Numbered from the stretch's first letter, positions 9,477-34,084 are shown. The stretch: DNA of 64,000 nt from Thermoanaerobaculia bacterium (GCA_963664405.1 OY761158.1:4480001-4544000), one strand, 5' to 3'. Notes: a model not told the origin generated them from the sequence alone. Translations and numbers: made by a program.

Positions 9477-9617
9477 CCGCTTACCAACTCAGCCAAACTA
9501 CCCCTATTCAGGCTGGTGATTCTCGATATTTAGCTGACCAATTAGTTGACCAGATGTTTGTAGTGAGAGCGTACTATCGTTCTTTATCAGTAAGTTACAG
9601 AGATTAACGGGACAGCC
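9477..9617 (+). repeat. 141-bp direct repeat copy A (att-arm-like)
   Basis: Matches 33900-34040 with 2 mismatches; contains tandem TAGYTGACCA boxes and an IHF-like TATCAGTAAGTTA. Confidence 0.92.
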
Positions 9618-9641
9618 GGTCAGGCTGTCGCTGCTCCCTCG

Positions 9642-10637
9642 TTACTCTAGGAGGCGTAGCGCACGGTGGCCTGGCACCTTGTCTCGGAGACGGTTACACC
9701 TCATCCGGACCTGGTCTCCAGTAAGAGTGCGCCCGGTTCGTTGCCCCACCTTTTTAGCAAGCCGAGCCCAATATTCTCCTCTGCCACCTCGGCGCAGCGG
9801 GAGTTTACCAAGAGCATTGATTTCCAGGAGGATCGCTTCGTCGAGCAAGTCCGGTACGCTGCCCGGTGCTGTCTTGATCTGCCGGTAGACCTCTTTGAGG
9901 TCGGCCTCTCGAATGAAAGCGCTTCGGATCGTCACTTTGACGTATGGGAGCACGCCGTCGATGGTAACGGGAGGGTAGATCAAGGGTGTTCCTGAGAGTG
10001 CGTACGCAACGAGATCATGCTCGTCTACTCCAGTCTTGCGCTTAGCCATTTCCGCGAACGCCTTCAATGCTGCTAGCTTAGAGCCAGGGGGGACCTTGAC
10101 CCCCTCTGGAGACCAGCTAAATATCTCCGTCCCTTTAGGCAAGGACGCAAGTTCGGCGTCACGGAGTCCTTTCGGCTTCATATAGAACAGAAAACTCGCG
10201 GTCAGAGTTAGGCCGAACAGTGCGACCTTGATCTCCTCCCGAAGTTCCTCAGAAATGACCCTAGGTTGGATCTTAGGCTGGCTCTCAATCCATTCGTAGG
10301 CGCCAACCTCATTAAAGGGCGGGTCCTCTGTCTTGAACAGCGTTCGCCTCAGATCCTGAGCGTCTTTGTCGATTAGTCGCTCAAGACGGGTTGCTCCAAG
10401 CCTTGCCCCGAGTCGGGAGGCCTCGCTCCACTGGGGGGCTACTTGGTTACCAAGGGTACGGGGGGCACGCGCTCCCATGAGGCCTGCAAGCTCGACGCAA
10501 CCGTTGGCCTTGGGTTTCGAGTCCCACCCCTGCTTTTGGTAGTGGGCGATCGCCACGGCGACCGCCCACGGGTGCTGCTCCCGCCCTTTGCACCGTACAT
10601 CACTCTCGAAATTGTAGTCGCGGTCTTGAACGTTCAT
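9642..10637 (-). CDS. Hypothetical protein divergent from alpA, putative repressor of the satellite-like element
   Basis: 331-aa ORF at the usual repressor position; basic helical C-terminus YWARLAKKV...LTGDQVRMRCNRLR. Confidence 0.5.
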   Translation of the reverse strand: MNVQDRDYNFESDVRCKGREQHPWAVAVAIAHYQKQGWDSKPKANGCVELAGLMGARAPRTLGNQVAPQWSEASRLGARLGATRLERLIDKDAQDLRRTLFKTEDPPFNEVGAYEWIESQPKIQPRVISEELREEIKVALFGLTLTASFLFYMKPKGLRDAELASLPKGTEIFSWSPEGVKVPPGSKLAALKAFAEMAKRKTGVDEHDLVAYALSGTPLIYPPVTIDGVLPYVKVTIRSAFIREADLKEVYRQIKTAPGSVPDLLDEAILLEINALGKLPLRRGGRGEYWARLAKKVGQRTGRTLTGDQVRMRCNRLRDKVPGHRALRLLE

Positions 10638-10669
10638 GATTATCTCCGTTCAATACGTTATCACTATTG

Positions 10670-10718
10670 CGACGACGAAAGCCGAGAATCCACCCGGGTT
10701 TCGACGTCGACGACGAAA
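10670..10718. promoter_or_regulatory. Repeated CGACGACGAAAG boxes and near-palindrome in the divergent intergenic region
   Basis: CGACGACGAAAG at 10670 and about 10708; TTTCGACGTCGACGACGAAA is an imperfect palindrome. Confidence 0.45.
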
Positions 10719-10731
10719 GGAGAGATCCAAA

Positions 10732-10956
10732 ATGGAGATTGAGAGCGGACGCCTACTGAAAACAGCGGAGGCCGCCGCCTTATGCGGGCTGTCGCCGCGG
10801 ACGCTTGAAGCGCATCGCTTTCGTGGCACCGGCCCTGTCTATGTATCGCTGTCCCCGAGGTGCGTCAGGTACGAGCTACGCGATCTCACTGAGTGGGTCG
10901 CGAGCAGCCGGAGAATATCTACTTCCGCGGTCGCACCGCCGGACCTGGGTCTATGA
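10732..10956 (+). CDS. AlpA/excisionase-like HTH protein
   Basis: LLKTAEAAALCGLSPRTLEAHRFRGTGPVYVSLSPRCVRYELRDLTEWV; strong RBS. Confidence 0.88.
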   Translation: MEIESGRLLKTAEAAALCGLSPRTLEAHRFRGTGPVYVSLSPRCVRYELRDLTEWVASSRRISTSAVAPPDLGL

Positions 10957-11282
10957 CCCTTACCAGTCGGAGACGTGCCTTTCTCTTCAACCCCGAGAAG
11001 CACTTCGGTGCCGCTGAAGAGGCTCCGGTGGCAATAACCGTTGAAGCACTTCACGAAGTGCTGGCTGAAGCAACGTACGTGATTCCGAATCCGACAGTGT
11101 CAGATGTGCAAGAGCAGCGCTTCACCCATAGAGATCTCCGAATCATGTCGGTGCCTGAGCTAGAGATAGAGAGCGACGGCGTGCGGATGCGGCGCGCGGT
11201 TGAGCAACCGGCCAATCCGTGGCTCGTCGATCGCCTGGAGAGGGTCCGCCAAGAGATGGCCGGCCGAGGGTCTACCGGATGA
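10953..11282 (+). CDS. Hypothetical protein (satellite-like module)
   Basis: ATGA-coupled to alpA; no recognisable motif. Confidence 0.5.
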   Translation: MTLTSRRRAFLFNPEKHFGAAEEAPVAITVEALHEVLAEATYVIPNPTVSDVQEQRFTHRDLRIMSVPELEIESDGVRMRRAVEQPANPWLVDRLERVRQEMAGRGSTG

Positions 11283-11520
11283 CCACGGGACGACACCTGC
11301 CCGAACTCGAGCAGGCCGTTATGGCTCGCAACGGCAAGCGGACGGGCGACGAAGGCGCCTTCTCCTGCCCAGAACCTCAGTCCCATCGGAACGTCGAAAC
11401 GACCACGAGCTCATCGCGCCATGGAGTTCGGACTCGAGGAAGAAGCAATCAGATGACCGCGCTCCTCGACATCGAGGCGGCACGCCGCGCGCCGATCCTC
11501 CGTGTGTGCGAGCAGCCGGC

Positions 11521-32261: not shown

Positions 32262-32539
32262 CGAGATGCCTCGATACAAAAGATCGCACCCACGCCTTGC
32301 GCGCAGACCACCGCCACCAGCCGCTCGAAGCCCGGTCGCTCGACCTGGCCGCCCGCGGAGCGTCCGAGGTCCTCGTCGATGACGACCACGTCCTTGAATC
32401 CTAGCTCGGAGGCGCGGTCCTTCAGTGCGTACTGACGCCGCTGACTCTCTCGGTTGTGGGCGACCTGCAGCGACGTCGACTGGCGAACGTACACCATGGC
32501 AGAGCGGCTCAGATGCTCACTCGTGATCTTGGCACTCAT
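32262..32539 (-). pseudogene. Large serine recombinase N-terminus truncated by ISAzo13
   Basis: AMVYVRQST..QV..NRESQRRQY, IDEDLGRSA, RPGFERLV, EASRL. Confidence 0.85.
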
Positions 32540-32541
32540 CC

Positions 32542-33014
32542 TCACCCCTCTCCCGATGGTCTATCTCCTGCGCCTGTAGTGCCGCGTGGATCAGCAGATC
32601 GATCAGAGCGTCCACCAACTCGCAGTGGCGAGCCGGCGTCAGCATCTCCGTCTCTGCCCTCGGTAGCGGCAACCGAATCTGCACGTTGCCCTGTAGAGCT
32701 CTCGTTGCTCGCATCAGCAGCCTCCTCCTGTGGTCCTAGGGAAGCCAGCTTGTCGCAGACCGGTGCGAGGACAGAGTCGAGCAGCGAGCTGAGCTCGCCA
32801 AGCGCAACGAGCGACGCCATCGGCGGTCCCTCGTCGAAGCTCTCGCACAGCCTCGAGTCCGCCATCCAGGCTGGCAGCTCCGCCAATGTGCCGTCGGGCA
32901 GCTCGCAGGTCAAGAGCCGCTGATCGCGTCTACGGCTGTGTTTATGAACCACGAGAACCGAGCCGTACCGCGGATGCCAGCGGTAGCGGATCTCGACCTT
33001 CCTGCCAACGTGAG
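32542..33014 (-). pseudogene. Small accessory genes of the recombinase module (YRWHP...LPAWM protein; overlapping 65-aa ORF 32517..32714)
   Basis: VEIRYRWHP...LAELPAWM motif of the type found upstream of such recombinases; 5' end abuts the istB fragment. Confidence 0.5.
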
Positions 33015-33470
33015 CACTATGTGACTGGACCGACCGGCATCGGCAAGTCGTATCTGGCGTGTGCTTTCGTCGAGAGAGCCTGCCGCAAGGGATCATCCAA
33101 CGCCTACTACGTCCGCACACCTCGGCTCCTGCACCAGCTGGCCGTCGGCCGAGGGGACGGCTCCTACAGTCGGCTGATGGCCCGGCTCGCTCGGCTCCAT
33201 CTCCTGGCCATCGACGACTGGCTCCTGGCGCCCCTGAAGCCCCAAGAGCGCCACGATCTACTCGAAGTCATCGAGGATCGCTCAGAAGGCGCCTCGACGC
33301 TGATCGCCTCGCAGCTGCTCGTCGAAGACTGGCACGCGGTGATCGGCGACCCGAACCAGGCCGACGCGATCTGCGATCGCCTACTACACCACGCCCACCG
33401 CATTGATCTGAAAGGGCGCTCACTGCGCGACCCGGAGGTGCCCGACGAACCCAAGGGATCTGCACAATGA
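33015..33470 (+). mobile_element. istB: IS21-family IstB ATPase, 3' fragment
   Basis: TGPTGIGKSYLACA, LLAIDDW, LLEVIEDR, ADAICDRLLHHAHRIDLKGRSLR. Confidence 0.88.
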
Positions 33471-33513
33471 GCCCGTCGCTGCGCTCCGACTCCGGACCAA
33501 CCGACAGGGGGAA

Positions 33514-33629
33514 GGCCTATGGAAGCTGCCGGGTCTGCGGAAAACCCACCGCGCTGCACCCTGTTTCCCGCAGCCCTTGCAAAACGCCCCCCGCGCCCCC
33601 TCCCGCGTTTCGCACAGCTCCCACAGGCC
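33514..33629. other. Structured element (closing stem plus two hairpins) downstream of istB
   Basis: GGCCTATGGAAGCTG/CAGCTCCCACAGGCC encloses CTGCGGAAAAC/GTTTCCCGCAG and TGCAAAACGC/GCGTTTCGCA. Confidence 0.6.
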
Positions 33630-33899
33630 AGGCGACGGCTAAATACGGACAAGTCAATAAGCGAAGTAGAAAAACGCCCCGGGCTCTGCCCCCTAAACTG
33701 CGGCAGCTGCCGCAGCAGCGACTCTGCGAGATCCTTCTCCTTCGAGATCCTTCTCCTTACCAGCCGGAGCTCGTGGAAACCCTTATCAGGACCTCTACGC
33801 GTTTCGTAGGAAAGGCCACCGGAATCCGGGAGGTCGGACTCATTGGTCAGACCCCAGGCTCTTCTTAGCTGTGAGCAAGAGCGGGCTCGCGCTCACCGC

Positions 33900-34040
33900 C
33901 CGCTTACCAACTCAGCCCAACTGCCCCTATTCAGGCTGGTGATTCTCGATATTTAGCTGACCAATTAGTTGACCAGATGTTTGTAGTGAGAGCGTACTAT
34001 CGTTCTTTATCAGTAAGTTACAGAGATTAACGGGACAGCC
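33900..34040 (+). repeat. 141-bp direct repeat copy B (att-arm-like)
   Basis: Matches 9477-9617; runs directly into the tRNA-Gly anticodon arm. Confidence 0.92.
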
Positions 34041-34084
34041 TTCCAAGCTGTTGGTCGCGAGTTCGAATCTCGTCTCCCGCTCCA
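34035..34084 (+). pseudogene. 3' half of tRNA-Gly(TCC), att site of an integrated element
   Basis: ACAGC-CTTCCAA-GCTGT anticodon arm, GTTCGAATC T-loop, TCCCGC-T-CCA end; 5' acceptor strand and D-arm absent. Confidence 0.9.

Follow-up and report, generated by a model that had tools for sequence, protein, structure and literature searches.

How can the arm of one and the same attachment (att) site run into a tRNA gene at one place and into DNA without any tRNA at another? The question is raised by a stretch of 64,000 nucleotides from a Thermoanaerobaculia bacterium (GCA_963664405.1, OY761158.1:4480001-4544000), which is G000:C1:4480001-4544000 of a single-contig genome of 6.78 Mb and is called here the window. 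It holds a 141-bp sequence in two copies, A and B, of which copy B leads into the 3' half of a tRNA-Gly gene and copy A does not. An earlier note, made from the window's sequence alone, had taken copy A for a mimic target in which an integrase tolerant of core mismatches stacks foreign modules. We find instead two sibling islands in tandem at one tRNA gene, E2 upstream (tRNA to copy A) and E1 downstream (copy A to copy B), and copy A is the joint between these siblings: the arm of E2 is fused through ten odd bases to the point that follows the integrase gene (int). Coordinates are those of the window, and a minus sign marks positions upstream of its start. The features that carry the argument are:

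9477..9617, + strand: copy A, a 141-bp integrase-distal attP-type arm ("X arm"), belonging to E2
9531..9552, + strand: tandem arm-type boxes TAGCTGACCA-AT-TAGTTGACCA of copy A
9585..9597, + strand: match TATCAGTAAGTTA to the integration host factor (IHF) consensus, copy A
9612..9628, + strand: hybrid core ACAGC-CGGTCAG-GCTGT, which as DNA folds into a 7-bp stem (GACAGCC/GGCTGTC) around a 5-nt loop
9618..9627, + strand: the ten bases GGTCAGGCTG, absent both from the DNA that follows the arm in copy B and from that following int in E2
33900..34040, + strand: copy B, a 141-bp arm belonging to E1, the canonical attR arm
34035..34087, + strand: displaced 3' fragment of tRNA-Gly(UCC), from the anticodon arm to CCA plus 3 nt

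The two copies of the arm are 141 nt long each and differ at two positions (9495 A/C and 9500 A/G). Both carry the tandem boxes (33954-33975 in copy B) and the IHF-like element, which matches the consensus WATCARNNNNTTR (34008-34020 in copy B), exactly as the earlier note had it. This consensus occurs three times on the two strands of the 64-kb window, two of these matches lying in the arm copies, and the G+C content of the arm is 44% against 61% for the window. A search of the whole genome for the 141-mer returned two full copies, A and B, and one partial match of 35 nt. The tandem-box pattern is found at three places genome-wide: copy A, copy B and directly upstream of the int start, where the pair GCTGACCA-GG-TAGCTGACCA stands immediately 5' of the start codon. 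Since this single further occurrence belongs to a P4-type int beside an intact tRNA-Gly(UCC), the att-like character that had been suspected for the 141-mer is borne out: the repeat is the integrase-distal att arm of a P4-family tyrosine-integrase island, and it ends in the left core half-site ACAGC.

The 35-nt partial match (89% identical, opposite strand, genome 4399271-4399305, positions 1501-1535 of that locus, L003) corresponds to arm positions 3-37, the outer end, and is located about 143 nt downstream of a tRNA-Thr(UGU), after an A+T-rich stretch with tandem TCGTAATC boxes. Neither an integrase paralogue nor a tRNA-Thr fragment was found near it, and Rfam returned only tRNA matches at the three loci with a full or partial arm.

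Prediction of tRNA genes with ARAGORN over the whole genome (49 genes) placed the sole tRNA-Gly(TCC) at 4470934-4471008 (window -9066..-8992), 5 nt after a tRNA-Tyr, and no tRNA-Gly in the 64-kb window. The intact tRNA-Gly and the integrase, which had been expected to lie outside the window, were both located there: tRNA-Gly(UCC) and a P4-type int sit 9.0-7.5 kb upstream of its start. The int gene starts 152 nt past the tRNA and encodes a protein of 438 aa with Arm-DNA-bind_3 (PF13356) and Phage_integrase (PF00589) domains, in which the R, K, HxxR, H and Y motifs are kept (alignment with 7 usable relatives). It has no close copy in the genome, its paralogues being at most 38% identical, and no relative with a solved structure was found by sequence.

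At the other end, copy B continues ACAGC-CTTCCAA-GCTGT as far as the CCA of a tRNA-Gly(UCC) 3' fragment, so that the run into a tRNA-Gly 3' half is confirmed as a 53-nt fragment at 34035-34087. The fragment is 98% identical to tRNA positions 26-75 plus TCT, gives a partial Rfam tRNA match of 28.8 bits, and shows one mismatch, a G in place of the intact gene's T in the variable loop. The block of identity begins at the 5' side of the anticodon stem (ACAGC); the stem is symmetric around the 7-nt loop, and the mismatch lies 3' of it. Fragment and full tRNA gene (tDNA) have the same orientation with the fragment downstream, and a hairpin with a T-run, supplied by the island, follows the tRNA. These features are the standard marks of an island with an attP centred on the anticodon loop. 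Copy B is thereby an ordinary attR, and the target of the island family is the anticodon stem-loop of the genome's sole tRNA-Gly(UCC) gene.

The space between the rebuilt tRNA and the displaced 3' fragment is occupied by E2 (18.6 kb) and E1 (24.4 kb), head to tail, in an array of about 43 kb. Comparison by blastn of the tRNA-to-copy-A DNA with the copy-A-to-copy-B DNA gave a 4.2-kb alignment of the siblings (-7508..-3694 with 9628..13746), which begins at 9628, the equivalent in E2 of a point 15 nt beyond the stop codon of int. As far as 10957 the siblings are 97-100% identical per 100 nt; identity then drops to 70-85%, with many indels, across the primase, and no similarity is recognisable beyond about 14.5 kb. 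E2 contains int, a broken open reading frame (ORF331), HTH_17 (phrog_66), a shattered primase, TerS (PF05119) and TerL in three frames, followed by an insertion sequence (IS) fragment, Phd/ParE and a type I restriction-modification (R-M) system. E1 contains an intact ORF331 on the minus strand, HTH_17, an 843-aa primase-helicase and a PIN gene, then IS debris and broken cargo. E1 (9618-33899) contains neither int nor an int-proximal arm, and its left end is without a tRNA fragment; likewise, neither a further tRNA-Gly fragment nor a second int-proximal arm was found between tRNA-Gly and tRNA-Thr. What E1 lacks, about 1.5 kb in total, thus extends from the right part of the core through the tRNA 3' half, the int-proximal arm and int to a 14-nt flank. 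We hold this anatomy, from the att arm and the upstream integrase to the two tandem siblings and the extent of the loss, with high confidence.

What stands at copy A is thus a joint within a tandem array, from which about 1.5 kb is missing, and the DNA after the arm is that of a sibling and not foreign DNA as a mimic target would have it. The earlier note was right that copy A continues ACAGC-CGGTCAG-GCTGT into non-tRNA DNA. In E2, the end of int reads TAA, then AGTGCGCCTACCAC, then the shared backbone TCGCTGCTCCC; at the same point of the alignment, copy A reads ACAGCC, then GGTCAGGCTG, then TCGCTGCTCCC. No informative second copy of GGTCAGGCTG (9618-9627) exists in the genome. Together with its neighbours the joint forms a perfect 7-bp palindrome, GACAGCC-GGTCA-GGCTGTC, whose right stem ends in two bases (TC, 9628-9629) of the backbone common to E1 and E2. 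As DNA it folds at -8.9 kcal/mol (z -2.5), against an average of -4.8 for shuffled sequences and -4.8 for copy B. The motif ACAGC-N7-GCTGT is present at five loci in the genome (about 7.8 are expected from base composition), three of which are the tRNA-Gly gene, copy A and copy B, while the other two have no arm and are unoccupied. The chance of a GCTGT at a fixed offset is about 1e-3, and its presence in register at copy A is more than chance. On the minus strand the spacer reads CTGACCG and contains CTGACC, the 6-nt core of the arm boxes. A resemblance of the spacer CGGTCAG to the tRNA-Asp loop CTGTCAC (5/7 positions) was taken as coincidence, since the stems differ.

We looked for the joint in public sequencing runs, in all cases as Logan contigs. 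The interval 9200-10000 is present in part in 14 runs, six of them with 47-67% of its words, and small shares of it occur in several sponge metagenomes. Contigs of four runs (X1, X9, X10 and X11), which possibly include the source sample of the genome, were aligned to 8000-12000, where gaps in the cover of X1 are not evidence of absence. In X9, a 186-nt contig covers 9501-9686 without differences; it begins just after the polymorphic arm position 9500 and stops 30 nt beyond 9656, where E1 and E2 first differ, and such ends would be expected of a 31-mer graph containing both arm variants and both backbones. In X10, a 2,602-nt contig covers 9477-10413 with three differences, and its 1,665 nt to the left of 9477 do not align to 8000-9476. 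A joint 10957/11207 with TACCCTTACC, which is the E2 form, was found in all four runs. Its depth in X10 is 3, compared to about 7 for E1-type contigs, and the E2-type letters missing from X10 at 9871-10179 are not evidence of absence.

What kind of event, then, produced the joint? We favour the reading that copy A is a scar left by a single, integrase-dependent event at the core. Integration twice at the same tRNA would have created a middle site that is a complete attP, in the order arm, core, tRNA half, arm, int. The integrase might then have acted a single time on this middle core, in one of two ways: a cis recombination with a weak secondary site immediately beyond int, or a cleavage that was aborted and then repaired. 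The cis reaction, which is the simplest path, would eject a 1.5-kb circle with the integrase gene of E1 (int1); the same product would result if an intermolecular reaction had led to integration at the secondary site and homologous recombination had later removed one int copy of the two. Removal of int1 would leave a symmetric ACAGC-N7-GCTGT core with a foreign spacer, and the joint would be a fossil and not a working class of targets. Action of an integrase at the core is suggested by the conjunction of two facts: the arms cease to be identical within the 7-nt loop, and the right half-site that follows is perfect and in register. We estimate the chance of such a joint from a random deletion at <1e-4, from about 7 loop positions among the few hundred to 1,500 deletion ends that spare the arm yet remove int, multiplied by about 1e-3. 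The involvement of an integrase at the core, already proposed in the earlier note, is hence probable.

Several observations weigh against this account. A clean site-specific exchange between two parents makes no filler, and GGTCAGGCTG is absent from the 3' flank of int in E2, which reads AGTGCGCCTACCAC. The ten bases are filler provided that the module missing from E1 was like its E2 counterpart, a likeness suggested by the 97-100% identity of the blocks next to it. The spacer, moreover, matches the tRNA loop at only 3/7 positions, and identity in the spacer is required by most tyrosine integrases (PMC2817482). It is these two objections to a clean exchange, the ten bases and the 3/7 spacer, that leave the integrase-dependent origin at only about an even chance in our estimation. 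The joint is also a single instance, the two other ACAGC-N7-GCTGT sites of the genome being unoccupied, and no relative with the ancestral state was found in the collections searched. Finally, the 1,665 nt of the X10 contig that fall outside 8000-9476 speak against it, and they fit a hitchhiking element just as well.

A first alternative dispenses with the integrase altogether: a break or replication slip would have taken about 1.5 kb from the middle att site and left a 10-nt filler, the right stem GGCTGT(C) being either accidental or copied in a templated snap-back from (G)ACAGCC. The ten bases are found in neither available parent sequence, a perfect 7-bp palindrome is what an inverted templated insertion would be expected to yield, and both islands are otherwise much decayed by IS elements and frameshifts. 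This illegitimate deletion would however have to account for a left end inside the 7-nt loop and a half-site in register, a double coincidence, and the palindrome is not wholly new DNA, as the TC at 9628-9629 is shared backbone; we consider it unlikely. We give a similarly low probability to E1 being an int-less, replication-competent hitchhiker docked on the attR of E2, with the copy-A joint as the native joint of its circle. Docking would rely either on the E2 integrase, supplied in trans, or on RecA and the 141 bp of arm homology, and the reverse reaction would restore a single island. By reasoning, a cross between such a circle and the attR of E2 gives the observed order, with the foreign spacer on the left and the tRNA loop on the right; the primase-helicase and Xis-like gene of E1 are intact while those of E2 are decayed or shorter; and in X10 an unbroken contig leads from the 1,665 nt foreign to 8000-9476 through arm and joint to 10413, with E1-type contigs at about 7x and the E2-type joint 10957/11207 at 3x. 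Yet the 1,665 nt may be strain-specific cargo or an artefact of a low-depth graph, the circle would have no int-proximal arm, which heterobivalent integrases normally need, and the origin of the joint itself would still require the same deletion. That E1 is a dedicated piggy-back element, which with its P-type arm and a private 7-nt spacer docks and undocks at the attR of a sibling and never touches the tRNA, seems to us more doubtful still; were it true, E2 could not excise alone while E1 is docked without destroying the only tRNA-Gly(UCC).

The proposal of the earlier note goes further, in that an integrase would take ACAGC-N7-GCTGT with any spacer and modules would routinely stack in a distinct accretion system. 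The half-sites are indeed symmetric and in register at copy A, and tyrosine recombinases that tolerate heterology exist, for example IntDOT (PMC2817482). There is however a single case; the two other genomic sites with the motif are empty and armless; the R-M block is internal to a full island with a normal attL; what was supposed to be a target is a sibling element, at the place from which int was lost; and no relatives were found in which cores could be counted. A general system of this kind is not supported, and we regard it as very improbable. Least probable of all, to the point of being nearly negligible, is an assembly artefact in which copy A was mis-joined through the 141-bp repeat. 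Repeats of this length can mislead assemblers, and the genome is a single contig whose read type is unknown. The earlier note had named misassembly as what would overturn copy A, yet contigs of two runs, X9 and X10, cross the joint, and the ten nucleotides after the arm are unique to it, so that a mis-join of two existing sequences cannot have made them.

The remaining features of the two islands are given below; those of E2 rest on Pfam matches, and hsdR also on its reading frames.

1..9476, + strand: right part of E2, assigned by Pfam matches and by its layout relative to the tRNA and int
2-912, - strand: IS fragment of E2
1052-1650: Phd/ParE of E2
1713-3707: hsdM of E2
4746-6332: hsdS of E2
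6344-9344: hsdR of E2, frameshifted near 8305
9628..10957, + strand: start of E1, 97-100% identical to the post-int block of E2 (-7508..-6171)
9642..10637, - strand: ORF331, convergent with the lost int; intact in E1, in two frames in E2
10636..10956, + strand: HTH_17 or excisionase-regulator (AlpA/Xis-like) of E1 (PF12728, phrog_66)
11200..13731, + strand: primase-helicase of E1, 843 aa; its E2 counterpart is 70-85% identical and in small frames
13732..33899, + strand: rest of the E1 cargo, heavily decayed

The PF12728 match of the E1 regulator (E 2.2e-05, 25.1 bits) falls under the curated cut-off of 27. The R-M block, which the earlier note had read as a module stacked in a mimic site, turns out to be cargo of a complete E2, whose left end is a normal attL at the tRNA. 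Its hsdR gene is split in two frames (6344-8491 and 8274/8385-9344). An abundant variant in X10 and X1 has one base fewer at 8305, which would fuse the frames to about 1,000 aa, and contigs of X9 and X11 share the state of the window. The restriction subunit is probably inactive in this genome; hsdM and hsdS look whole. In X9-X11 the depth of the R-M DNA at 8000-9473 amounts to hundreds to thousands, and that to the right of 9474 to 3-53; in X1 the corresponding values are 24-316 and 0-4. All four runs, which come from sponge-associated or host samples, share a loose end after 9421. This contrast in depth, together with the common loose end, indicates that near-identical R-M DNA resides in far more abundant members of the community: the R-M cassettes appear to be common to these organisms, with a homology that ends 56 nt before the arm.

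Beyond the primase, the E1 cargo (13732-33899) consists of PIN, IS3 fragments, a split TonB-dependent receptor, further IS fragments, FG-GAP and TPR proteins, an ISAZ013-type IS, and resolvase and IstB fragments. The receptor (17611-20325) is in two ORFs, with CarboxypepD_reg and Plug domains followed by the beta-barrel, and is probably a pseudogene. The IS at 30249-32261 is complete, with 34-nt terminal inverted repeats (88% complementary) and a 464-aa DDE_Tnp_ISAZ013 transposase, and it adjoins the resolvase and IstB fragments. A partial duplication (21511-22276 and 24777-25949, 88-91% identical) surrounds a UPF0236-family transposase-like gene and its DUF6788 neighbour. Each island also holds one copy of a 729-nt inverted repeat (184-912 and 20746-21472, 99-100% identical) made of DDE_Tnp_1_4 transposase fragments, a possible substrate for inverting 20 kb including copy A; the order between the repeats looks un-inverted at present. 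Outside the islands, a direct repeat of at least 300 nt, 100% identical, lies at 46423-46722 and 62589-62888. Its left copy opens a 397-aa ORF (46426-47619) between tRNA-Thr(GGT) and tRNA-Trp, by its position a putative duplicated tuf.

ORF331, convergent with int in this island family, is an orphan: one homologue, 95% identical and without context, was found among 5.8e9 proteins. Its E2 counterpart (genome 4472509-4473505) is broken into two frames. The protein had no match in Pfam or PHROGs and no lead in Atlas (best score 0.78, with a recognition value under the reliable range), and none of the three gave a sign of a recombinase. A single-sequence AlphaFold model is not usable as a whole (mean pLDDT 40), and its last ~60 residues (about 270-331) are predicted, with some confidence, to be helical.

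The search for relatives was equally unrewarding. The DNA of 9477-10700 matched only G000 among 57 family genomes, apart from one 28-nt match (E 8e-4), and the ORF331 protein only G000 among 401 phylum genomes. For ORF331 there were 144 candidate stretches in genome_contigs and 206 in metagenome_contigs, and for int 5 in viral_contigs; none was confirmed, and the core-proximal 21-mer of the arm had 0 matches in metagenome_contigs and 0 in viral_contigs. The tandem-box pattern occurred in 117 stretches of genome_contigs, about the number reckoned by chance in 596 Gb; we attribute them to chance, as blast of the arm (loci L012 onward) matched the pattern only. The downstream flank (34085-40600) gave scattered gene matches of 65-76% in the family, without synteny or an empty site. 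The table of N7 cores across genome and relatives that the earlier note had called for could consequently not be filled: in the collections searched, neither the arm nor the joint nor the flanking gene had a relative. Relatives of int itself in the phylum sample are at most 45% identical. At eight loci of other genomes they adjoin tRNA-Ala(CGC) (two), tRNA-Asp(GTC)/Val (three), tRNA-Arg(CCG) (one) or no tRNA (two); none adjoins tRNA-Gly, and they are no help for this core. One 72-nt tRNA-Arg(CCG)-like gene (locus L136, G414:C3, 1047-1118) has the anticodon stem ACAGC/GCTGT and lies next to a 42%-identical int relative with an internal stop.

How does the array compare to known systems? Islander (Hudson, Lau & Williams 2015, PMC4383910) catalogues 3,919 islands, of which 2,083 have an anticodon-centred attP ('site A'), and counts 125 tandems with at least two members. 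As in those, the tDNA is rebuilt and its displaced 3' fragment has the direct orientation, a tyrosine integrase lies by the tDNA, the identity block starts at the anticodon stem, and two islands share one tDNA (PMC4383910). Our locus accordingly shows a tDNA with a same-strand fragment, a tyrosine integrase with its catalytic motifs and an anticodon-centred block. The Islander rule for tandems asks for an integrase and a tDNA fragment of its own in each member (PMC4383910); unlike them, E1 has neither integrase nor tDNA fragment at the middle joint and falls outside the strict rule.

A closer model is the cis-mobilisable element (CIME), a decayed, int-less element in accretion with a functional sibling, as for ICESt1/ICESt3 of Streptococcus thermophilus (Pavlovic 2004 and Bellanger 2011, via the review PMC5704250). 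As in accretions of a CIME with an integrative and conjugative (ICE) or mobilisable (IME) element, an element without integration genes stands beside an equipped sibling, and their tandem, formed at att sites, is a composite potentially mobilisable in cis (PMC5704250). A CIME retains both of its att sites, attL and attR, each with the normal repeat (PMC5704250), whereas the left site of E1 has a foreign 7-nt spacer and no tRNA fragment. The middle site here keeps a P-type arm and both half-sites, and the right site of E1 is normal. In contrast to a CIME-ICE array (PMC5704250), there is no conjugation module: int, a Xis-like gene, primase and TerS/TerL make E1 and E2 look like phage satellites or an integrative replicon.

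In P4-like satellites and islands of the phage-inducible chromosomal island (PICI) type, int is followed by a small regulator or excisionase (HTH_17/AlpA-like), a primase and TerS, with defence cargo such as type I R-M and toxin-antitoxin systems at the far end. The E1/E2 family has the same int, HTH_17 (phrog_66), primase (phrog_1829), TerS (PF05119) and far-end defence cargo; it departs from them in its broken TerL, the orphan ORF331 and the enlargement of the islands by IS elements and cargo. No genes for helper interference, helper interaction or capsids were recognised in E1 or E2.

For the joint, the nearest precedent is the HK022 integrase, which recombines attP with a secondary site inside the phage (PMC5495485). 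Here, too, the integrase would have joined its own attP to a weak site in the same element, with a deletion as the presumed outcome in place of the inversion in a lambdoid phage (PMC5495485). SGI1 is likewise an integrative element with a secondary site and tandems, with another integrase and target and backed by experiments (PMC2297512). IntDOT of CTnDOT tolerates heterology in the overlap and offers a model should int cross unlike spacers, although it belongs to another recombinase lineage and has no tRNA target (PMC2817482, PMC2034462). Tandem arrays with decayed members at att sites have precedents (PMC5704250, PMC4383910), and other works treat tandem accretion (PMC13651849, PMC3146451). 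A literature search aimed at the joint, far from exhaustive, brought up no account of a P-arm that leads into a symmetric core whose spacer is foreign.

Tandem accretion at tRNA genes is thus already described; E1 and E2 with their orphan genes are new members of this kind, and the joint is a lone curiosity. The locus is a well-resolved example of islands that pile up and decay at a tRNA gene, with an int module lost precisely at the crossover. For island finders it carries a caution, as a tandem member with neither integrase nor tDNA fragment merges into one 43-kb island. If the hybrid core were a working site, a P4-family integrase would be exchanging strands across unlike spacers, and if E1 cycled on the attR of its sibling, this would be a form of hitchhiking outside the definition of CIMEs. 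For the bacterium, the present arrangement constrains how the islands can leave: with a single tRNA-Gly(TCC) in the genome, the tRNA is kept only if the array departs as a 43-kb composite (attL x copy B), and excision of E2 alone (attL x copy A) would truncate or destroy the only tRNA-Gly(UCC).

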